DNA of 64,000 nt from Gemmatimonadales bacterium (GTDB lineage: Bacteria > Gemmatimonadota > Gemmatimonadetes > Gemmatimonadales > GWC2-71-9), in assembly GCA_044229445.1 (NCBI GenBank), contig JBGASX010000011.1, forward strand, positions 7,712 to 71,711, read 5' to 3'. Every line of letters begins with the position of its first letter. The stretch's first letter is position 1. Below the pieces are notes generated by a model that saw only the letters and a list, made by a program, of their open reading frames with translations, ran no database searches and had not been told where the DNA came from. This document shows, piece by piece, positions 4,507 through 24,146 of this stretch. Made by a program: the position numbers and the translations under genes.

Positions 4507-5640
4507 GTGCGGCGCCACCGTACGCGGCGGAACTCACTCGCCGCGGAGACCACCGTGCGTCGCCTGTCACTCCTCACCTTGCTGCTGCTCACCAGTTCCC
4601 GGCTCACGCCGCTCGCCGCCGAACCCGCCTACCGCACCCACCGCGTCGTGCAGCTCGCCGACGGGGTCTACGGCTTCCTCTGGCGCGAGGCCGCCGTCGC
4701 TCCCGAACCCAACGTCCTCATCATCATCAACGATCGTGACGTCGTCGTGGTGGACGCGGATCTGTACCCCTCCTCGGCGCGGACCATCGTCCGGGAGATC
4801 AAGCGCCTCACCCGCAAACCGGTGCGCTACGTGGTGAACACCCACTGGCATGGCGACCATCTCTACGGCAACAGCGTCTTCCGGGATGCCTGGCCGGGGG
4901 TCGAGTTCGTCGCGCATGCCAACACCCGCGCCGACGCGGAGACCCGCGCCTTCCCCGACATTCCGAAGGTCGTCGCCGAGAACCGCGCCTCACTCGCGCA
5001 GGTGAAGGAGATCGCCCGCACCGGGAAGAACCCCGACGGCAGTGCCGGCTCGCCCGCAGGGCTCGCCTTCCTCCGGAACGAGGTACTGCCCGAACTCGAG
5101 CTCTACGTGCAGGAGATTCCGAAGGTCTGCCCCGTCCTCCCCGACCTCACCTTCACCGACAGCCTCGTGTTCCATCGCGGCGCCCGCACCATCGCGCTCC
5201 ACTACCTCGGGCTCGGCAACACCCGCGGTGATGTCGTCGTCTGGCTTCCGTCGGAACGGATCCTCGCCACCGGTGACCTCGTCGTCGCCCCGACGCCGTT
5301 CGGCATGGGCTCCTGGTACGCAGAGTGGGCGGGGACCCTCGATCGCCTCGCCGCCTTCGATGCGCAGACCCTCTTCCTCGGTCACGGCGCGATGCAGCAT
5401 GACGCGACCTACGTTCACCAGCTCCGCGACCTGCTCAACGCGCTCGTGCGCCGGGTGAAGGCGCAGGTGGATAGCGGCGCCACACTCGAGGAGGTGCAGC
5501 GGAGCGTGACGCTCAAGGACTGGGAGGCGACGTTTGCGGGGGAGGACCGGCTCAAGCGGCAGGCATTCCAGGAGTTCTTCGTGCAGCCGGCGGTGGAACG
5601 TACCTGGCATCAGCTCAGGGGTGACCCCGACAGCGAGTAG
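4507..5640 (+). CDS. MBL-fold metallo-hydrolase, probably secreted
   Basis: The HxHxDH motif is present in VVNTHWHGDHLYGN. A hydrophobic N-terminal segment LSLLTLLLLTSSRLTPLAA is present. The start is uncertain: GTG at 4507, with an alternative GTG near 4555. Confidence 0.8.
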   Translation: MRRHRTRRNSLAAETTVRRLSLLTLLLLTSSRLTPLAAEPAYRTHRVVQLADGVYGFLWREAAVAPEPNVLIIINDRDVVVVDADLYPSSARTIVREIKRLTRKPVRYVVNTHWHGDHLYGNSVFRDAWPGVEFVAHANTRADAETRAFPDIPKVVAENRASLAQVKEIARTGKNPDGSAGSPAGLAFLRNEVLPELELYVQEIPKVCPVLPDLTFTDSLVFHRGARTIALHYLGLGNTRGDVVVWLPSERILATGDLVVAPTPFGMGSWYAEWAGTLDRLAAFDAQTLFLGHGAMQHDATYVHQLRDLLNALVRRVKAQVDSGATLEEVQRSVTLKDWEATFAGEDRLKRQAFQEFFVQPAVERTWHQLRGDPDSE

Positions 5641-5650
5641 ACGCCTTTGC

Positions 5651-6394
5651 CTACTCCCAGCGGAACACCCGCGAGGAGAATGCCGTGCAGAGCACGAAGA
5701 CCAGCGCAAGCGCCGCGAGATCGCCGAGGTGCGCGCTCCAGGGATCGCCGTTCCAGATGCCGGTCAGCAGCGATACCGAGTAGGTGAGCGGCATGCAGCG
5801 GGCGACCAGGTTGAGTGCCGGGGGCAGCGCCTCCACCGGGATGAAGATTCCGGAGAGCGCGATCATCGGATACAGGAACGCGCCGCCGACCGGCTGCGCG
5901 AACCGCGCGGTGGGCACCACACTCGCCACGATGAAGCCGATCGAGAGAATGCTGAAGGTGCTGATGAGGAGCGCGAGGAGGAAGCTCGCGACCGGCACCC
6001 CGGCGCCGATCGGTGCGAAGCGCCGCCCCGCGAGCATCACCGCCACCAGCGTGAGCGCCGTGAGCAGCAGCTTCACCACGACGTGGGCGGAGAGAATCGT
6101 CTGTGGCCGGAGCGGCGTCGCGCGCAGGCGCCGGAGAATCCCGCCCTCGCGGTAGACGGCGATGATCGTCACCAGCGACAGGACGGCGCTGATGCTGATC
6201 AGGAGCGCCGCGAGCACCGGCACGGGAACCTGCAGCATGCTGCTCGCGGGGGAGGCCTCGGGCTTCGGTCCGGCGGCCTTGCCGAAGATGAAATAGACCA
6301 GCACCGGCAGGACGATCGTGCCGATCGCCCCCATCGGCTCGCGCAGGAAGATCTTGAGCTCGAGCCAGACCAGTTGCCAGAGTCCGCGCAGCAT
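5651..6394 (-). CDS. ABC-2 type transporter permease
   Basis: Six hydrophobic segments with an ABC-2-like layout. It lies 10 nt downstream of the ATPase stop. I prefer ATG 6394 (MLRGLWQLVWLELKIF...) over the track start 6445, which would overlap the ATPase gene. Confidence 0.8.
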   Translation of the reverse strand: MLRGLWQLVWLELKIFLREPMGAIGTIVLPVLVYFIFGKAAGPKPEASPASSMLQVPVPVLAALLISISAVLSLVTIIAVYREGGILRRLRATPLRPQTILSAHVVVKLLLTALTLVAVMLAGRRFAPIGAGVPVASFLLALLISTFSILSIGFIVASVVPTARFAQPVGGAFLYPMIALSGIFIPVEALPPALNLVARCMPLTYSVSLLTGIWNGDPWSAHLGDLAALALVFVLCTAFSSRVFRWE

Positions 6395-11119: not shown

Positions 11120-12310
11120 TTGCATGGGCCGACGCCCAGTCACCGAGGCAACCGCCGTATGACCCTGCACGACACCGGCCGGCGTGGCACCCGACGGCCC
11201 CTTCCCCTGCTCCTTCTCTCCGCCTTTGCGCTCGGCGCTCTCGTCGGCTGCGACGACGTGCCCGCGACTGGCCCCTCCGGCGGCCCGAAGCCGGAGATTC
11301 GCTTCGTGAACCTCGCGATGCCGGTGGATCTCACGCCGAGCGGCGACCTCGCGGCGATCCAGGATGCGGCCTCGGCAACGGGCGATCTCTATTTCTATCA
11401 CACCGCGACCGGCGCGCTCGAGTTCAAGACCAGGGTGGGCGATCCGCTCCGCACCTTCGCGAGCGCTATCTCCGCCACCGGCGCGGTGACCGCGCTCCAC
11501 AACGAGCCGGTGCAGGCGGGCTTCTGGACCGCGGCGAGCGAGTGGACCGACCTCAGCTCGCCCTACCTGAGCGGCTGCGGCGCAGACTACGCTGGCGCCT
11601 GGGATGTGAGCGCGAACGCGCACATCATCGTCGGACTGGTCTGGAACGGATGCAACGCGGAAGCCTTCCGCTGGGATGCGGGCGGCACCGGGATCATCAC
11701 GCCGCTTCAGCTGCTCGGCCAGAGCTATCCCGGCAGCCCGAACCCGCCGGCGAATCGCGCCACCGTGGTCTCCGACGACGGCACCACCGCCGCGGGCTGG
11801 GCGCAGACCAGCCTTGTCGATCGTGCGCCGGCCATCTGGAAGGCGGACGGCACCGGCTTCATGCTCACCGGCTTCACGCCGGATGCGCCGGGCGAAATTC
11901 TCTCCATCAGCGCCGACGGCAAGATGGTGGCCGGCACCTGGGCCGACAGCGCCTTCTACTGGACTGCGGCGACGGGGGTGGTCAACATCGGCAAGCTTCC
12001 TGACAGCGGCGGCTTCACCGGCGGCACCTTCGCCAATGCGATCGCCGCCAACGGCCGGCTCATCTTCGGCACCGACGGCTCTCCCTTCTTTACCCTGCCG
12101 CGCGCCTTCGTCTGGACCCAGGCCAGCGGGATGCAGTCGCTCGACTCGGTCGCCGTGGCCGCCGGCGTCACCATCCCGCAGGGCTACTCGCTCAACCACG
12201 TCCAGGCCGCCTCCGCGGACGGGACGGTCATCCTGGGCACGGCGTACACGCCGACGCTCAATGTGGTGACGTTCGTGCTGACCCTCCCCCTCTCCGCGTA
12301 CGGCTTGTGA
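11120..12310 (+). CDS. lipoprotein with HAF-like extracellular repeats
   Basis: The lipobox is LLLLSAFALGALVGCDD. A repeated unit of about 45 aa recurs (S/A-x-D/N-G-x-x-V/I-x-G ... AF-x-W ... G), for example ANAHIIVGLVWNGCNAEAFRWDAGG, ISADGKMVAGTWADSAFYWTAATG and ANGRLIFGT...RAFVWTQASG. The track start is TTG 11120. ATG 11159 (MTLHDTG...) is more likely. Confidence 0.6.
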   Translation: MHGPTPSHRGNRRMTLHDTGRRGTRRPLPLLLLSAFALGALVGCDDVPATGPSGGPKPEIRFVNLAMPVDLTPSGDLAAIQDAASATGDLYFYHTATGALEFKTRVGDPLRTFASAISATGAVTALHNEPVQAGFWTAASEWTDLSSPYLSGCGADYAGAWDVSANAHIIVGLVWNGCNAEAFRWDAGGTGIITPLQLLGQSYPGSPNPPANRATVVSDDGTTAAGWAQTSLVDRAPAIWKADGTGFMLTGFTPDAPGEILSISADGKMVAGTWADSAFYWTAATGVVNIGKLPDSGGFTGGTFANAIAANGRLIFGTDGSPFFTLPRAFVWTQASGMQSLDSVAVAAGVTIPQGYSLNHVQAASADGTVILGTAYTPTLNVVTFVLTLPLSAYGL

Positions 12311-13782
12311 GGCGGCCCCCCATGACGACCCGCTCCGCCCTGCAGGCCCTGACGCTTCCGCTCTGCCTACTCGCGCTCGCGAGCTGCGGCGACGACGGCT
12401 TCTCCCCCGGCGTCCCGGCAAAGGTCGTGATCGCCGAGAGCGGCTTCAACTTCACCGCCGTCGGGCAGAACCATCTCTTCCCCGCCGCCGCGACCGACGC
12501 GCACGGTCACCTGATCCAGATGTCGTTCATCTGGTCCAGCTCCGATCCGTCCGTCGTCCAGGTGAACGGGGACGGCCTCGCGACCGCGACCGGTCCCGGC
12601 TCCGCGATCGTGACCGTCACCGCCGGTTCGCACAGCGACACCGCCACCGTGAGCGTGCACCAGACCGCGGCCCACATCAGCGCGGTCCAGGGAGATGGCC
12701 AGGGCGGCATCGCCTCGCAGATGCTGCCGGCACCGCTGGTCGTTCAGGTGACCGACGCCCTCAACCGGCCGGTGGGTGGCGTGCTGGTGCACTTCGGGAC
12801 CAGCGACAGCGGCGCCGTCGTCGCGCCCGACACCGCGACCACCGATCGGAACGGCTTCGCCGCGACGACGCTCACCCTCGGCTCCGCGCCCGGCAACTAC
12901 GGCGTCACCGCGACCGTGCCCGGCACGGCGCTCAGCACCAGCTTCACCGCACGCACTTCCGGCCCCTTCAGCATCGACCTGCTGTACGTGAACGGGACGC
13001 CTTCGCCCGCCCAGGCCCAGGCCTTCAACCTGGCACGGCAGCGGTGGGAGTCCATCATCACCGGCGACCTCCCAGACGATTACGCCTCGCTGCCCGCGAA
13101 CAGCTGCGGCGGGAGCCCGGCGATCGACCGGCCGATCGACGACCTGCTGATCTTCGTCACCATCGCCGACATCGACGGGCCCGGCGGCATCCTCGGCCAG
13201 GCCGCCCCCTGCTTCCTGCATTCCGTCGGCGGGCTGCCGGCCATCGGCCAGATGACCTTCGACGTGGCCGACCTCGCCGTCATCGACAGCGCCGGCCTCC
13301 TCTCCGCGGTGGTGACCCACGAGATGGGGCATGTCCTGGGCTACGGCACACTCTGGAGCTCACTCGGTCTCCTCGCCAATCCCTCGAGCCAGGGCGGACT
13401 CGACCCCTCCTTCACCGGGCCGTTCGCCATTGCCGCCTTCGACTCGCTCGGCGGGATCACCCACGTGGGCGCGAAGGTGCCGGTCGAGGACCAGGGCGGT
13501 CCCGGCACCGCCGACAGCCACTGGCGCGAGACCACCTTCGGCAACGAACTGATGACCGGCTACGTGAATCTCGGATTCAATCCGCTGAGCGCGGTGAGCA
13601 TCGCCTCGATGGCGGACCTCGGATATACCGTGGACTACAGCACCGCGGATCCCTACACCATCTTCGCGCCGATCCGCCTGCCCGGCCCCGAGCTGCGCCT
13701 GCATCTCCAGAACGACGTCATCACCGGGCCGATCCGGGTGATGCCGCACCGCCGGAAGTCCGCCGGCTCCACCCGGCACTAG
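12307..13782 (+). CDS. lipoprotein: Ig-like (Big_2, Big_1-like) domains fused to a leishmanolysin-like (M8) zinc metalloprotease
   Basis: The lipobox is LCLLALASCGDD. A Big_2-like segment (FIWSSSDPSVVQVNGDGLATATGPGSAIVTVTAG) and a Big_1-like segment (LVVQVTDALNRPVGGVLVHF...TDRNGFAATTLTLG) follow. The HExxH motif is in VVTHEMGHVLGYG, with downstream ADSHWRETTFGNELMTG. The start overlaps the upstream stop by 4 nt. Confidence 0.75.
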   Translation: MRRPPMTTRSALQALTLPLCLLALASCGDDGFSPGVPAKVVIAESGFNFTAVGQNHLFPAAATDAHGHLIQMSFIWSSSDPSVVQVNGDGLATATGPGSAIVTVTAGSHSDTATVSVHQTAAHISAVQGDGQGGIASQMLPAPLVVQVTDALNRPVGGVLVHFGTSDSGAVVAPDTATTDRNGFAATTLTLGSAPGNYGVTATVPGTALSTSFTARTSGPFSIDLLYVNGTPSPAQAQAFNLARQRWESIITGDLPDDYASLPANSCGGSPAIDRPIDDLLIFVTIADIDGPGGILGQAAPCFLHSVGGLPAIGQMTFDVADLAVIDSAGLLSAVVTHEMGHVLGYGTLWSSLGLLANPSSQGGLDPSFTGPFAIAAFDSLGGITHVGAKVPVEDQGGPGTADSHWRETTFGNELMTGYVNLGFNPLSAVSIASMADLGYTVDYSTADPYTIFAPIRLPGPELRLHLQNDVITGPIRVMPHRRKSAGSTRH

Positions 13783-13791
13783 CGCCGAACC

Positions 13792-14754
13792 ATGCCGGCC
13801 CGCTCCGCGTCGCGCCTGACAAGTACGCTCCGGCACCACGCCGCGGTGCTGGCCTGCCTGCTTGGCGTCTGGACGGGCACGCTCCGGGCGCAGAGCGACA
13901 GCGCAGCGGCCGCGGCCCTCGGGGGTGGCTATGCGGCGCCACCGCCGACCATCGTCTTCATGACCGATTTCGGCACCGCGAATGACGCCGCCGCCATCTG
14001 CCGGGCGGTGATGGTCGGCATCGCGCCGACGGTGCGGATCATGGACATCACCCATCAGGTAACGCCCTACTCCATCGAAGAAGCGGCGCGAAACCTCGAA
14101 TCGGTCACGCCCTACTATCCCGAGGGAACGGTCTTCGTCGTCGTCGTCGATCCCGGCGTCGGCACCGACCGGAAGGCGCTCATCGTGCGCAGTCGCCGAG
14201 GCCAGTACTTCGTGCTGCCTGACAACGGCATCGTGACACCGGTGATCGACCGGGACGGCTTCGATGGCGCGCACGAGATCAGCAATCCGGTCTGGATGAT
14301 CGGCGACCGGATCTCTTCCACTTTCCACGGGCGCGACATCTTCTCGCCGACCGCGGCGTATCTCGCTTCGGGGTGGAACTGGACCGAAGCGGGGCCGGCG
14401 GTCACCGAGCTGGTGCGTCTGAAACCCCGCATCGCCGTGGCCAGCCGGAGCGGCATCGCGGGCGAGGTCATCGCCCTCGACGATCCCTACGGGAACCTCA
14501 TCACCGACATCACCGCGGAGCAGTTCCGCGACCTGGGGTACAGGCTCGGCGATCAGGTCCCCGTGCAGATCGACGCCCGGCGGCTCCGCTTTCCGTTCGT
14601 GAAGACCTTCGGCGATGTCCCGGTAGGGAAGCCGCTCCTCTACCTCGATTCACGCGGTCGCGTGGCGTTTTCGCTCAACGAACGTGACATGGCGAAGGCC
14701 TACGGCATCCATCCACCCGCCCGGGTGACGATTCCGAGGAAGACGCAGCGATAA
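13792..14754 (+). CDS. SAM hydrolase / SAM hydroxide adenosyltransferase family protein (DUF62) with N-terminal signal-like segment
   Basis: Family motifs are present: FMTDFGTANDAAAICRAVM, VVVVDPGVGTDRKALIV, FVLPDNGIVTPVI and STFHGRDIFSPTAAYLASG. The gene lies 9 nt after the upstream stop. Confidence 0.8.
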   Translation: MPARSASRLTSTLRHHAAVLACLLGVWTGTLRAQSDSAAAAALGGGYAAPPPTIVFMTDFGTANDAAAICRAVMVGIAPTVRIMDITHQVTPYSIEEAARNLESVTPYYPEGTVFVVVVDPGVGTDRKALIVRSRRGQYFVLPDNGIVTPVIDRDGFDGAHEISNPVWMIGDRISSTFHGRDIFSPTAAYLASGWNWTEAGPAVTELVRLKPRIAVASRSGIAGEVIALDDPYGNLITDITAEQFRDLGYRLGDQVPVQIDARRLRFPFVKTFGDVPVGKPLLYLDSRGRVAFSLNERDMAKAYGIHPPARVTIPRKTQR

Positions 14755-14991: not shown

Positions 14992-15438
14992 ATGACACGA
15001 TTGCAGAGGACGATGGGTGTGCTTGCGGCCTGCGCGCTGGTCGGTACGAGCGCCGCGCAGGCTGAAGGGTTCAAGCCGGGGAGCGACTGCAATCCCTCCG
15101 GCTTCACGACCTGCATGGCGGTGCATCTCAGCGTGCTGAAGGATGGCCTGTCCGTCGGCGAGAGGAATGCGTCGTGGCAGGACTGGGCCGGCGAAGGCCG
15201 CAACACGACGTACAAGTTCGTCCCGGGGGATCACGGCCTCGGCCTGGATCATCCCGGCAACGGGGGCGTGGTACCCGGCGCATGTCCGGTACCCTCCCGC
15301 AATCCGCGTGACTGCGCGTCGGTGGTGACGGTGACGCCCGAGCCGGTCACGATGACCCTGCTGGCCACCGGTCTCCTGAGCATGTCAGGGATGGGGTTCG
15401 TGAGCCGGAGGCGGAAGCAGAAGTTCGAGCAGATGTAA
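14992..15438 (+). CDS. PEP-CTERM sorting-domain secreted protein
   Basis: AAGGAGG lies 5 nt before ATG 14992. The signal peptide is MTRLQRTMGVLAACALVGTSAAQA. The C-terminus VTPEPVTMTLLATGLLSMSGMGFVSRRRKQ shows the PEP motif, a TM segment and a basic tail. The track ORF starts at TTG 14938. Confidence 0.75.
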   Translation: MTRLQRTMGVLAACALVGTSAAQAEGFKPGSDCNPSGFTTCMAVHLSVLKDGLSVGERNASWQDWAGEGRNTTYKFVPGDHGLGLDHPGNGGVVPGACPVPSRNPRDCASVVTVTPEPVTMTLLATGLLSMSGMGFVSRRRKQKFEQM

Positions 15439-15549
15439 CGAAGTGCTGGCCGATGGCGCAGAGGACTTCTCCGAAGCGACCAGGACAGGGGCCGGCGTAC
15501 CAGGCACCTGATTGCCAGTTTCCCCGGCCGTCTTTGAAAGGCGGATTGT

Positions 15550-15669
15550 ATGACCAAGACCCAGAAGGCCACCTGGATGACCCCAACACTCGTCGGCAAG
15601 CAGGTCAGCCAGACTCTCAGTGGCGCGGGCTCCAACTTTGATGCCCGTGGTGGCGAGTTCCACAGCTGA
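15550..15669 (+). CDS. lasso peptide precursor (39 aa), not in ORF track
   Basis: Hand translation from ATG 15550 to TGA 15667-15669 gives MTKTQKATWMTPTLVGKQVSQTLSGAGSNFDARGGEFHS. GAAAGG lies at 15536-15541. It sits directly upstream of the kinase/B1/B2/C/D genes. It has Thr at -2, Asp at core position 8 and a C-terminal Ser. Confidence 0.7.
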   Translation: MTKTQKATWMTPTLVGKQVSQTLSGAGSNFDARGGEFHS

Positions 15670-15682
15670 ATCGCGGCAGACC

Positions 15683-16690
15683 ATGCCAGCGCGATCTGAC
15701 TCGATGCCCTCCGGCGCACCATCGGCCGGGGGGCATCTGGTCTTGAGCCCCGACGCGACCCCGGTGCGTGATTTCTGGGTCTACGGCCTGCGCGTGCGGT
15801 CGGCGATCGACCTCGTCGGCTGGCCGGTCATCGCTGACGCAGAACCCGACGTGATCATCCGGCGCGAGCCGCTGGGGGATGTCCCGCTCGAGGGAGACTC
15901 GTACAGCGCCCGGGCAGTCGTCGAGGATGGCGAGCTCAAGCTCGGCGTGCGTGGTGTCGGCCGCTATGCCGCCTTCGGGGGGTCCCTGATCCGGGTGGAC
16001 GCGGAGCCCGGGGCGAAGCCCGAGGATGTCCGGCTCTACCTCACGGGCGCGCTCATGGGTGTCATCCTCCACCAGCGCGGCACTCTTCCACTCCATGCCA
16101 GTTGCGTGGCGCTGCCGCTGGACGCCGGGTGCGTGGCCTTCGCGGGCCCCTCCGGCGCCGGCAAGTCCACCCTGGTCGCCGAGCTGATCCGTCAGGGGTG
16201 CGGCTTCGTGAGCGACGATCTCTGCGTGATGGCCCCCGCGGCCCGCGGCGAACTCCGCGTCTGGCCCGGCGCCGCGCGGCTCAAGCTCGACGCAACGAGT
16301 CTGGGAAGAACGTCGTGCCGGGGATCGGACCTCGAACCCGCCGGTGGCGGCCGGGGGAAGTTCCACCTCCCCATGGACGCGTCGCTCCACCACACGTCGC
16401 CCGCTCCGCTCCACCGGGTCTACATCCTGACCGACGGAGAGGGGCCACCGCGCGTCGAGCCGCTGGTGGGCCTCGAGGCGATCGCGGCGCTGGTCGACCA
16501 GACCTATCTGCTCTCGAGCGCGCGTGCCATGGGGCTGACGTCGCAGGTCTTCCGTCTGGTCGGCGGCGTTGCCCGCGGGCTGACCGTCAGCCGGCTGATC
16601 CGGCCCCGCGGACTCGGGTTCCTCCCGGCGATGGCCGAGCTGGTCACGCACGCCGCGGAGCGCCCCACCGCAATGCTCCATCCCGCATGA
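15683..16690 (+). CDS. HPr kinase-like serine kinase (lasso precursor kinase type)
   Basis: A P-loop FAGPSGAGKSTLVAELIRQG is followed by FVSDDLCV, as in the HprK C-terminal domain. It is located in the lasso operon. I prefer ATG 15683 because the track start GTG 15620 would overlap the precursor ORF. Confidence 0.75.
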   Translation: MPARSDSMPSGAPSAGGHLVLSPDATPVRDFWVYGLRVRSAIDLVGWPVIADAEPDVIIRREPLGDVPLEGDSYSARAVVEDGELKLGVRGVGRYAAFGGSLIRVDAEPGAKPEDVRLYLTGALMGVILHQRGTLPLHASCVALPLDAGCVAFAGPSGAGKSTLVAELIRQGCGFVSDDLCVMAPAARGELRVWPGAARLKLDATSLGRTSCRGSDLEPAGGGRGKFHLPMDASLHHTSPAPLHRVYILTDGEGPPRVEPLVGLEAIAALVDQTYLLSSARAMGLTSQVFRLVGGVARGLTVSRLIRPRGLGFLPAMAELVTHAAERPTAMLHPA

Positions 16691-21197: not shown

Positions 21198-22453
21198 CCA
21201 GCACGACGTTGGACACTTCGCCCTGCGATGCCGAGGCGCAGCGCGCCTGGCTCGATCTGCTCCGTGACGAGAGTGGCCTCAGCCTGACGCTCAGCGACCA
21301 TCAGTGGGACTGCCTCGCCGACGAAGCCACGCGGCACCACCTGCGCGGGGTGACCTACCGCCGGATGGCCGACAGTCCTTTCGCCGCCCGGGTGCCGGCC
21401 GCCGTCTGGGACCGGTTGCGCTCCTCCTATCTCGAGACCGCGGGACGCAACGCCGTGCTGTTCCGACAGACCAGCCGTATCGTGACCGAGCTCGCGGCAC
21501 GGGGCATTCCGGTGATTCTGCTCAAGGGGATGCATCTCGCGCGGTACGTCTATGCCGACCCCGGGCTCCGCAGCATGGCCGACGTGGACATCATGGTGCG
21601 AACGGAGCATCTGGCCGAAACCGAGCGCGTCTTCCTCGAGCACGGCTTCGGCCCCCTGCCGCGGCCTGGCATCAAGGAGTGGTGTCGCACCAACCATCAC
21701 CTGGCCAAGCTGCGGAAGGATGGCGCACCCGAGGTCGAGGTGCACTGGAACATCCAGCGGCCGACGGGACCCTTCCAGATCGACGTGGAAGGCCTCTGGC
21801 AGCGCTCCGTGCCCGCGATGCTGGACGGAGCGCCGGTTCGGCTGCTCTCGGCCGAGGATCTGCTGCTGCACCTGACCATCCACCTCTCGCACCAGCACCA
21901 CTTCCGGCGCGCGGCGCTCAAGGGGCTGGTGGACATCAGCACGCTGATCTTCGCCGAGGGAAGCAGGCTCGACTGGTCGCTGCTCGCGGCACGGGCGCGC
22001 GCCTGGGGGGCGTCTGGCGTGCTCTTTACCACCCTTCGCCTGACGACCGAGCTGCTGGGCACGCCCGTGCCGGCGGATGTCTTTGCGATGCTGCCGCACG
22101 AGGCGCGTGACGAGGAGATCGTCGGCGTGGCGCGCCGCTACATCCTCACCTTGTATGCCGTGGTGCCGACGGCGTACCAGAAGCTCGCGCACCAGGCTTC
22201 GCCCAGTGAACGCATCAAGCTCCTCGTCTCGGCCCTCTTCCTTCCCAGGGAGCGCATGGAGGAGATCTACGGCCTGCGTGCGGGATCGCCGCTCCTTTAT
22301 CCCTGCTACCTGCTGCGACTCGTCAGCCTCGCCTGGAATCGCGGCGACCTCCTGCGGCAGAGCCTCTTCCGCGGCCCGGCGATTCGGCAGGCGCTCAACC
22401 GGGAACGGGATCTCGAGACCCTCGAGCAGTGGAGCTCCACCTCACCCGGGTAG
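21194..22453 (+). CDS. nucleotidyltransferase family protein (NTP_transf_5-like)
   Basis: The start overlaps the ABC exporter stop (ATGA). The motif region is ILLKGMHLARYVYADPGLRSMADVDIMV. This is the last gene of the lasso operon. Confidence 0.7.
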   Translation: MTSTTLDTSPCDAEAQRAWLDLLRDESGLSLTLSDHQWDCLADEATRHHLRGVTYRRMADSPFAARVPAAVWDRLRSSYLETAGRNAVLFRQTSRIVTELAARGIPVILLKGMHLARYVYADPGLRSMADVDIMVRTEHLAETERVFLEHGFGPLPRPGIKEWCRTNHHLAKLRKDGAPEVEVHWNIQRPTGPFQIDVEGLWQRSVPAMLDGAPVRLLSAEDLLLHLTIHLSHQHHFRRAALKGLVDISTLIFAEGSRLDWSLLAARARAWGASGVLFTTLRLTTELLGTPVPADVFAMLPHEARDEEIVGVARRYILTLYAVVPTAYQKLAHQASPSERIKLLVSALFLPRERMEEIYGLRAGSPLLYPCYLLRLVSLAWNRGDLLRQSLFRGPAIRQALNRERDLETLEQWSSTSPG

Positions 22454-24015
22454 AAACGACGGGCGCCCCCTGCGGTGAAGAGCAGTCCACCCGTCACCGG
22501 CACCGGCACCAGCCGGTTCGTATTGCTGCCATCGCCGAGTTGCCCGCGGGCGTTGTTGCCCCAGCACCAGGCGCTCCCGCCAGACGTCAGACCGCACGTA
22601 TGGCTCTCGCCGGCAGCCAGCTCGCTGAACGACATACCGCCCGCGACTGCCGTGGGCAGGAGCCGGTCGGTCGTGGTGCCGTCTCCCAGCTGTCCGCCGC
22701 CCCCGTATACCGGATCGGCACTATTGCGGCCCCAGCACATCGCCGCACCGGACGTCAGGAGGCCGCAGGTGTGGAAACCGCCGCCCATGAGCGAGGTGAA
22801 GGTCAGCCCGCCCGCGACCGGCACCGGGAGGTTCCGGGACGTGGTCGTGCCATCACCGAGCTGGCCGTACCGGTTGTCGCCCCAGCAGTAGGCCGCACCA
22901 CTCGCCGTGAGGCCGCAGGTCTGCCCGTAGCCGAGCGCCAGCGCCGTGAAGCGGTAGCCGCCTGACACGGCGGTCGGCTGGTACCGGTTGGTGAAGGTGC
23001 CGTCGCCGAGCTGGCCCTCGTTGTTCTGGCCCCAGCAGTACGCCTGACCGCCGCTCACCAGGGCACAGGTCGCATTGGCCCCCGCGAGGATCGTGGTGAA
23101 GCGCAGCCCGCCGATCACCGCGACCGGGGTGTTGCGGTGGATCGTCGTGCCATCGCCGACGACGCCGTTGTCGTTGTTCCCCCAGCACCAGGCCGCGCCT
23201 CCCGCAACCAGCCCGCAGCCGCCCCAGGTACGGGTCTCAAGCAGGATGAACCGATGTTCACCGGCGATCGGCGTCGGCACATGACGGGTATCATTGGTCC
23301 CGTCGCCGAGGTCGCCGAAGCTGTTGAAGCCCCAGCAGTACCCGAGGCCGGTGCCGGTGAGCCCGCAGCTGTGCCAGTAGCCCCCCGACAACGAGACGAA
23401 CGGGAGATTGCCGCTCACCAGCGTCGGCACATTGCGCGGCAGGGTCGTGCCATCGCCGAGATCGCCCGCGGTGTTGTCGCCCCAGCAGTAGGACTGGCCA
23501 TCACTGGAAATGCCGCAGGTCTGAAAGGAACCCGCCGCCAGGAGGGTGCGCGCCGTCGCGGTGGCAGTGAAGGTCGCGAACACCTCCTTGTCGCCGAGCG
23601 CGGTCACCCCGCGCACCTCGAGCGACTGCCGCACGCCGGCGACGGGGCCGAGCGTCCAGTAGTCGCTGGCGCGGCCGAGCCGGTCGGTGAGCGCCGAGCC
23701 GGCGAACACGCTGCCGCCACCGGCGGTGACGCGGAAGTTGACCACGATTCCCGCCAGCGGGACGCCGGCAGGCGAGACCGCCTTCACGGTGAGCGGAATC
23801 GGCAATTCGAGACCGGCCGGACCGGTCTGATGATCCCCACCCAGCACCAGCAGCGTCATTCCCGCGGGATCGACTGGGGCCACCGCAGACTCGGCGCAGG
23901 ATTGCGTGAAGATCCCGAGCGCGGCGAGCGCCAGCAGGCGTCGCGCCGAGCGGAGCGGTGCGTCAAGCGGGTGATAGGCGTGGTGAACGGAGGGCAATGG
24001 CAGGTTGGACCACAT
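22306..24015 (-). CDS. RCC1-repeat lipoprotein with Ig-like domain
   Basis: The signal/lipobox is RRLLALAALGIFTQSCAES. An Ig-like segment (PIPLTVKAVSPAGVPLAGIVVNFRVTAGGG) follows. Many RCC1 blades carry CG(L/I)...G.AYCWG.N..GQLGDGT. I prefer ATG 24015, which has GAAGGGGG upstream; the track start is 24060. The last ~50 codons are Arg-rich and overlap the convergent gene. Confidence 0.8.
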   Translation of the reverse strand: MWSNLPLPSVHHAYHPLDAPLRSARRLLALAALGIFTQSCAESAVAPVDPAGMTLLVLGGDHQTGPAGLELPIPLTVKAVSPAGVPLAGIVVNFRVTAGGGSVFAGSALTDRLGRASDYWTLGPVAGVRQSLEVRGVTALGDKEVFATFTATATARTLLAAGSFQTCGISSDGQSYCWGDNTAGDLGDGTTLPRNVPTLVSGNLPFVSLSGGYWHSCGLTGTGLGYCWGFNSFGDLGDGTNDTRHVPTPIAGEHRFILLETRTWGGCGLVAGGAAWCWGNNDNGVVGDGTTIHRNTPVAVIGGLRFTTILAGANATCALVSGGQAYCWGQNNEGQLGDGTFTNRYQPTAVSGGYRFTALALGYGQTCGLTASGAAYCWGDNRYGQLGDGTTTSRNLPVPVAGGLTFTSLMGGGFHTCGLLTSGAAMCWGRNSADPVYGGGGQLGDGTTTDRLLPTAVAGGMSFSELAAGESHTCGLTSGGSAWCWGNNARGQLGDGSNTNRLVPVPVTGGLLFTAGGARRFYPGEVELHCSRVSRSRSRLSACRIAGPRKRLCRRRSPRFQARLTSRSR

Positions 24016-24146
24016 GGAGACCCCCTTCGCGGCGCGGGTACGTACCCGCCAGGTCGTCATCCCTGTGGGGGCCCCACTGGCACACTGCGGAGTCTCGTCG
24101 CCACCGGGGTGACGTTGAGCGAAGGGTCAACCTTACCGTCGCTGAC

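Follow-up and report, generated by a model that had tools for sequence, protein, structure and literature searches.

A candidate class II lasso peptide precursor of the kinase type and its conserved family in Gemmatimonadota

Described kinase-type clusters and the gene content of the locus

The closest described relatives of the locus reported here are the clusters for paeninodin (pade, Paenibacillus dendritiformis C454) and pseudomycoidin (psm, Bacillus pseudomycoides DSM 12442) and the bsf cluster of the Gram-negative Bradymonas sediminis FA350. The locus lies in a stretch of 64,000 nucleotides from Gemmatimonadales bacterium (contig JBGASX010000011.1, positions 7,712 to 71,711, forward strand), which is called the window throughout, and is headed by a 39-codon open reading frame (ORF) at 15550-15669. 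This ORF is very probably the precursor gene for a lasso peptide that belongs to class II, the class free of disulfides, and to the kinase/nucleotidyltransferase type represented by paeninodin and pseudomycoidin. Lasso kinases modify the linear precursor at its C-terminal Ser (PMC8498205), as the paeninodin kinase does, and the activity of a lasso kinase is stimulated by the leader-binding protein B1 (PMC10368454). The kinases ThcoK and SyanK (Sphingobium yanoikuyae), which are likened to the present kinase by description, are HPrK-like and place one or more phosphates on the C-terminal Ser of the precursor, including in Proteobacteria. In pseudomycoidin the C-terminal Ser is phosphorylated and then receives one or two hexoses in a step that depends on the nucleotidyltransferase N, PsmN adding 162-Da units to the phosphate (PMC6993621).

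In the window seven co-directional genes are arranged in the order A-K-B1-B2-C-D-N between 15550 and 22453, with the precursor gene first, and this gene set has been described for lasso clusters of the kinase type, with pade, psm and bsf as examples. The small ORF adjoins, on the same strand, genes with matches to PF05402, PF13471 and PF00733, the combination used as a criterion for lasso precursors, and the gene order of the cluster is kept in at least 12 related loci. The same seven gene types are present in the bsf cluster (BsfA/K/B1/B2/C/D/N), and psm shares A, K, B1, B2, C, D and N. The pade cluster has the split B1/B2 pair, the HPrK-like kinase and the Ser-terminated precursor in common with the window but is without an N gene. 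The order of the genes differs from that of psm, where psmN is found between the B2 and D genes and where psmC was cloned jointly with psmA (psmCA); B1 and B2 are dispensable in that system. A preliminary description of the ORF had proposed a lasso precursor gene ahead of a kinase gene. The ORF was found to head genes for an HPrK-like kinase, a PqqD/B1 protein, a transglutaminase/B2 protein, an Asn-synthase-like cyclase, an ABC exporter and an NTP_transf_5 protein, and every testable part of that proposal held, covering context, conservation, invariant features and core start.

In its set of genes, the logic of its leader and its Ser terminus the locus fits the paeninodin, pseudomycoidin and bsf kind, and it differs from that kind in the Trp of the leader motif, the predicted 8-membered ring, the short and unrelated 16-residue core, the last position of N and the phylum. 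The experimentally defined precursor of paeninodin, PadeA (leader MKKQYSKPSLEVLDVHQTM, core AGPGTSTPDAFQPDPDEDVHYDS, AGPG...DS), carries Y(-15), P(-12), L(-10) and T(-2), the same register as in the window apart from Tyr in the place of Trp, and its core also starts x-G-x-G. The paeninodin ring has nine residues (Ala1-Asp9) compared with a predicted eight here (Ser1-Asp8), the core has 23 residues compared with 16, there is no core similarity beyond xGxG and the terminal Ser, and the producer belongs to the Firmicutes rather than the Gemmatimonadota. BsfA has Ile(-2), a YxxPxL motif at -17/-14/-12, Asp as its last residue and a phosphorylated Ser3, whereas the window precursor has Thr(-2), its motif at -15/-12/-10 and a C-terminal Ser. 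The preliminary description had recognised no named lasso peptide in the core, and in the literature searched no match was found to any of six core or leader strings.

The precursor gene, its homologs and the adjoining kinase

The ORF that opens at ATG 15550 encodes MTKTQKATWMTPTLVGKQVSQTLSGAGSNFDARGGEFHS. Its coordinates, its translation and the GAAAGG at 15536-15541, 8 nt 5' of the ATG, proved to be as first described. At 39 residues it falls below the 60-residue cutoff of the ORF list, which shows in its place the overlapping GTG-initiated ORF 15620-16690, and GTG 15620 lies inside precursor codon 24 (offset 70 nt), the out-of-frame overlap again agreeing with the preliminary description. 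A purine tract of the form GAAAGGnGGA or GAGGAGG is kept at the same distance from the ATG in the related loci L001-L005 and L007.

The identical 39-residue peptide has already been called as a gene on 14 public contigs, among them JBGATI010000011.1 from a Gemmatimonadales metagenome-assembled genome (MAG), where the kinase shares 92% identity with that of the window and a single synonymous base sets the two peptide genes apart. The preliminary reading had been made to depend on a homologous small ORF upstream of the kinase in related clusters, and such an ORF was found directly upstream of the orthologous kinase in 7/7 related species-representative genome loci, one of which is cut by the contig end. 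Five further precursor variants were obtained by protein searches, and a search with the in-frame upstream codon (Cys) prepended to the peptide gave three close homologs. When more distant kinases were considered (49-66% identity), a family precursor was present in all six genomic contexts, and among metagenome loci with a kinase at least 44% identical it was present in 10 of 12, the remaining two holding less than 200 nt upstream. The family compiled from upstream of orthologous kinases in Gemmatimonadota contains 25 distinct long-type homologous precursors with 24 distinct cores. Below about 40% kinase identity (L035-L100) a motif scan gave a single weak candidate precursor (L048, with Ala at -2), and these kinases belong to other families or other gene orders. 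Public gene callers left the precursor uncalled in 3/7 more distant loci (L014:8717-8845, L015:8717-8845 and L016:8771-8893), and since in these clusters the gap upstream of the kinase holds a precursor that the callers passed over, the family is under-annotated in public MAGs.

Pairwise ratios of nonsynonymous to synonymous differences per site (pN/pS, Nei-Gojobori) were 0.26-0.64 in the frame of the ORF, compared with 0.83-3.05 in the two other frames, and the substitutions were concentrated at third codon positions (5/5/16 in the comparison with L002, for example). The ORF is under purifying selection in its own frame only, and we regard it as almost certainly a lasso precursor gene. No model in NCBIfam matches the peptide and no second precursor copy was detected by tblastn within the window. 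In a screen for expression signals around the ORF, a consensus search gave no sigma-70-type promoter and no intrinsic terminator, and no Rfam family was matched. A hairpin between A and K (15671-15694, enclosing ATG 15683) was considered and rejected, its stability being no better than that of shuffled sequence (z = 0.42).

The start of the kinase gene was examined in the same set of loci. In 8/8 loci an ATGCCC lies 3' of the precursor gene, though in L006 and L007 it does not share the frame of the kinase, and public gene callers also begin the kinase at ATG 15704. This ATG-CCC element (MPSGAP.AGGH) is the only one in the kinase frame that is conserved across loci. In the window the kinase frame upstream of this codon is open from 15581; it is not conserved and is closed in L007. 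The GTG 15620 start is an artefact of the open GC-rich frame. The ATG 15683 favoured in the preliminary description was closer than 15620, yet an equivalent of it is missing in L003-L005 and the conserved start is ATG 15704. With the start at 15704 the kinase and precursor genes do not overlap, nor would they with 15683.

The kinase gave weak matches to Hpr_kinase_C, TIGR04355 and TIGR04352 (HprK_rel_A, HprK_rel_B). When it was compared by BLASTP with BsfK, whose sequence was obtained by translating the gene printed in PMC10368454, an alignment with 42% identity over 71 residues was returned (E 2e-9). The published lasso-kinase motif, H148-G163-G166-G168-K169-S170-D186-D187 in BsfK (PMC10368454), is aligned over its whole length and with identical spacing by H131, G147, G150, G152-K153-S154 and D170-D171 of the window kinase, numbered from ATG 15704. 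The 43 homologs examined show no variation at G151, G153, K154, S155, D171 and D172 and hardly any at H131 and A147 (alignment numbering). An AlphaFold2 model of the kinase had a predicted local distance difference test score (pLDDT) of 89.9 and a predicted template modelling score (pTM) of 0.87, with residues 1-15 of 328 disordered. The top PDB neighbours of this model in Foldseek were phosphoenolpyruvate (PEP) carboxykinases and HPr kinase/phosphorylases (1kkl_B, 3tqf), with E values of 5e-7 to 8e-6. As the catalytic domain of the HPr kinase/phosphorylases and PEP carboxykinase are structurally related folds, the modelled fold is consistent with an HPrK-type kinase. The kinase family comprises at least 264 clusters at 90% identity; the matches with a source name all bear the annotation "hypothetical protein", and each of these sources is a Gemmatimonadota MAG.

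Core start, proposed pathway and alternatives

The features on which the lasso reading was based were conserved throughout the family. In the leader, W(-15) is present in 24/24 members and P(-12), L/V/M(-10), V(-9), K(-7) and T(-2) in 25/25 each. In the core, G2, G4 and D8 are each present in 25/25 and a C-terminal Ser in 24/24 complete members, the long-type cores having 15-20 residues. The counts of acidic residues are 1/25 for core position 7 and 0/25 for position 9, and the first core residue varies, with Q (9), S (9), G (3), A (2), T (1) and N (1) all represented. The preliminary description, which had placed the core start at Ser24, had correctly located Thr22 at -2, W9xxP12xL14 in the leader, Asp31 at core position 8 and Ser as the last residue, and none of these features is lost among the 25 distinct members if Leu, Val or Met is allowed at position 14. 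The Gly it had listed at -8 is present in the window (Gly16) but occurs in only 7/25 members, so that it is no feature of the family.

In the window the codons of the leader motif lie at 15574-15591, that of Thr(-2) at 15613-15615, that of Asp8 (Asp31) at 15640-15642 and that of the C-terminal Ser16 (Ser39) at 15664-15666. A core start at Ser24 with a Ser1-Asp8 ring is probable. The invariant Thr falls at -2 in that register only, W9, P12, L14 and T22 then take the register of Y(-15), P(-12), L(-10) and T(-2) in paeninodin, and the cores here and in paeninodin then both begin x-G-x-G. The core contains no Cys, and Arg10, Phe14 and His15 are available as plugs.

The sequence of steps proposed here, with its phosphorylation site, the attachment of hexose, the threading and the export, is inferred from characterised relatives. 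B1, a PqqD-like element that recognises ribosomally made peptides which undergo post-translational modification (RiPPs), would bind the leader through W9-x-x-P12-x-L14, and K, probably with the help of B1, would phosphorylate the still-linear precursor at Ser39 (core Ser16). B2 would then cleave after Thr22-Leu23 and the ATP-dependent cyclase C would join the alpha-amine of Ser1 to the side chain of Asp8, giving an 8-residue ring and the tail ARGGEFHS, with Arg10, Phe14, His15 and/or the modified C-terminus serving as plugs. N would attach one or two hexoses to the phosphate and D would export the product. Phosphorylation of the C-terminal Ser is likely by analogy with these relatives, and for the addition of hexose by N the chances appear about even. 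Taken by itself, the window locus does not imply any new biochemistry.

Several observations weigh against this assignment. Every match of the kinase to the HPrK models of Pfam and NCBIfam falls short of the curated cutoff, and the cyclase and B1 also score under the curated cutoffs of NF033535 and NF033536 (lasso_PqqD_Bac), the latter giving 72.3 bits (E 2.7e-20) where 80 is needed. A sequence search of the PDB with the kinase returned P-loop noise only and no lasso-kinase structure. Trp stands in the leader motif in place of the Tyr of characterised systems. Core position 1 is Gln, Asn or Thr in 11/25 members, residues that are unusual at the start of lasso peptides, and this places some doubt on the cleavage site. 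The characterised lasso kinase BsfK phosphorylates Ser3 and not a C-terminal Ser (PMC10368454), so the C-terminal site cannot be taken for granted. Unmodified pseudomycoidin is reported to be unthreaded, so a true lasso topology is not guaranteed either.

The last point bears on a possible, though rather doubtful, outcome in which the product is cyclised yet branched-cyclic and unthreaded, or is threaded only with a phospho-hexose lock. Pseudomycoidin made without K and N is reported not to be threaded, and a phospho-glycosyl lock was proposed by the authors of that work (PMC6993621). The tail of the window peptide is only eight residues long, although it holds the bulky Arg10, Phe14 and His15. 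Lasso peptides of 15-16 residues with 8-residue rings are known, which counts in favour of a threaded product.

A second alternative, already mentioned in the preliminary description, is that B2 cuts after Ser24 and gives the core GAGSNFDARGGEFHS, with a 7-residue Gly1-Asp7 ring and Thr at -3. Gly is the commonest first residue of lasso peptides, and this cut would place an invariant Gly (25/25) at the start of the core, whereas position 1 in the Ser24 register varies (Q, S, G, A, T, N). Moreover, penultimate leader residues other than Thr (Ile/Val) are documented in kinase-type clusters (PMC10368454). In the Gly25 register, however, the residue at -2, which is read by the S2 pocket of B1/B2, would be L, A, M, R or Q across the family and thus too variable for that pocket, while the invariant Thr stands one position earlier. 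The W/P/L motif would fall at -16/-13/-11, unlike paeninodin (-15/-12/-10) and the canonical spacing of -17/-14/-12, and in the short-core relatives described below the same shift would give Gln1-Glu7 with no Gly1. This alternative is unlikely, and the ring of eight from Ser24 preferred in the preliminary description is favoured by the invariant Thr(-2) and the paeninodin register.

With the precursor and the Ser1-Asp8 ring as proposed, the kinase might instead modify Ser1 or Ser5 of the ring, as BsfK does at Ser3. BsfK is the sole characterised lasso kinase that was compared directly (E 2e-9), and the window core has Ser at both of these positions. Among the hydroxyl residues of the family, however, the last Ser alone is invariant, being present in all complete members and in 4/4 short-core relatives, while Ser or Thr occurs at position 1 in 10/25 and at position 5 in 18/25. 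BsfA ends in Asp, hence BsfK has no C-terminal route, and the kinases that act on Ser-terminated precursors (PadeK, ThcoK, SyanK, PsmK) all use the terminal Ser. Since it is invariant, short-core relatives included, and no other hydroxyl is, the terminal Ser is the main candidate acceptor, and modification within the ring is improbable.

A chance open frame in DNA of about 70% GC, where long spurious ORFs are common and several overlap the region on both strands, or the N-terminal portion of a kinase gene beginning at GTG 15620 in the frame open from 15581, is effectively refuted and excluded for practical purposes, because 25 distinct homologs keep the functional positions invariant, purifying selection is confined to the ORF frame, the Shine-Dalgarno tract is conserved, the kinase N-terminus is conserved from ATG 15704 only, and kinase residues 1-15 are already disordered in the model.

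Cluster features, flanking genes and short-core relatives

The coordinates of the features are collected in Table 1. B1 and BsfB1 share 26% identity in their alignment, and the Tyr of the YFGL motif is among the residues aligned. The ORF of B2 opens at GTG 16966, and its score with NF033537 (lasso_biosyn_B2) is 93.6 bits, over the cutoff of 33. The start of D overlaps the stop of C by 4 nt. N carries a D-V-D motif at residues 129-131, to be compared with the catalytic D134/D136 of PsmN, to which it is likened only through the description of PsmN as an "uncharacterized nucleotidyltransferase". A sequence search of the PDB with N gave no match, and no literature linking PF14907 with lasso peptides was found.

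Table 1. Positions of the precursor gene, its parts and the other genes of the cluster in the window
Feature	Position	Strand	Details
Precursor peptide gene (A)	15550..15669	+	39 codons plus TGA (15667-15669)
Shine-Dalgarno-like purine tract GAAAGGCGGA	15536..15545	+	Read directly; ends 4 nt before ATG
Predicted leader, 23 residues, MTKTQKATWMTPTLVGKQVSQTL	15550..15618	+	W(-15)xxP(-12)xL(-10), K(-7), T(-2); register of paeninodin
Predicted core, 16 residues, SGAGSNFDARGGEFHS	15619..15666	+	Ser1 and Asp8, predicted isopeptide partners; Ser16, predicted phosphorylation site
Kinase (K), HPrK/PEPCK-superfamily P-loop kinase, 328 aa	15704..16690	+	Start by conserved MPSGAP.AGGH
B1, PqqD-like RiPP recognition element, 109 aa	16701..17030	+	PF05402, E 3.3e-18
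B2, transglutaminase-like leader peptidase, 143 aa	16987..17418	+	PF13471, E 1.5e-24; start per public gene calls
C, Asn-synthase-like lasso macrolactam cyclase, 652 aa	17431..19389	+	PF00733 and GATase_7; NF033535, E 5e-113
D, ABC exporter, fused permease and ATPase, 603 aa	19386..21197	+	PF00664 and PF00005; start per public gene calls
N, uncharacterised nucleotidyltransferase (NTP_transf_5), 419 aa	21194..22453	+	PF14907, E 2.6e-57

At its downstream end the cluster meets a gene on the opposite strand for an RCC1-repeat (beta-propeller) protein of 584 aa (22306-24060, minus strand). Directly upstream of the precursor gene, 14992-15438 (plus strand) encodes a secreted protein of 148 aa with a weak C-terminal PEP-CTERM sorting signal, which has a homolog in the same place in L003 (52% identity) and L001 (95%), is absent from more distant clusters and probably lies outside the cluster. 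It is preceded by genes on the plus strand for a leishmanolysin-like M8 peptidase with bacterial immunoglobulin-like domains (12307-13782) and an S-adenosylmethionine (SAM) hydroxide adenosyltransferase (SAM_HAT_N/C, 13792-14754). The PEP-CTERM, SAM_HAT and M8-peptidase genes were considered as cluster members and rejected, being syntenic in the closest relatives only. The cluster and its flanks have equal GC content, which gives no indication that the cluster was recently transferred.

Duplications of the precursor were observed in related loci. At L031:1831-2442 two tandem precursor genes, with the cores AGTGTHTDSLADFQS and TGRGTTTDGLADFQS, stand before one kinase. The segment L003:357-1328, which lies about 2.2 kb upstream of the intact A gene, is probably a decayed duplicate of the A-K pair. 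It begins with what resembles the remains of a leader (WVSPTLLGKP), with a stop codon before it, and continues with another copy of the kinase, which is broken into two frames and lacks the P-loop region.

Sister clusters with the order A-K-B1-B2-N and the same leader were found at L004:3877-7030, L005:3880-7064 and L021:2856-6000, and their cores of 11-13 residues are TQGPPVGEIGS, TQGNPGGEIGS and TQAPPGGEIGIGS. No cyclase (C) or exporter (D) was found within the available DNA of these three loci. The L004 cluster lies between a gene for a heavy-metal P-type ATPase and a flank with MOSC and SDR genes. In L019 a full K-B1-B2-C-D-N set accompanies two precursors about 390 nt apart (5299-5400 and 5791-5904), one with the long-type core NGTGANLDARGGEVQS and the other with the short-type core TQSPISQIGS, which has neither Asp nor Glu and, lacking an acidic residue, cannot form a macrolactam. 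The short-core relatives suggest that the K/B1/B2/N module is also used independently of lasso formation, and the L004, L005 and L021 clusters may represent a lasso-derived pathway for a linear phospho(-glyco)peptide. It is a tentative possibility that, in this family, K, B1, B2 and N form a self-standing pathway for C-terminally phospho(-glyco)sylated peptides to which lasso cyclisation is an optional addition. If so, the family would document a transition from a lasso peptide to a new linear type of RiPP, and the conserved GE(F/L)-x-S(P-hexose) tail, not the knot, would be the functional part of the window peptide too.

For annotation, the comparison corrects the start of the kinase and supplies the precursors missed by gene callers in L014, L015 and L016. 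In a survey of Gemmatimonadota, lasso clusters were counted by genome mining in 29 marine MAGs and were not described (PMC11316326), and as far as searches show the present family is the first defined lasso family in this phylum. Its 24 distinct cores, with G2, G4, D8 and the terminal Ser fixed and position 1 variable (Gln, Asn and Thr included), form a natural variant series that could help to show how much substrate variation is tolerated by the cyclase, by the kinase and by N, an enzyme that is poorly understood.

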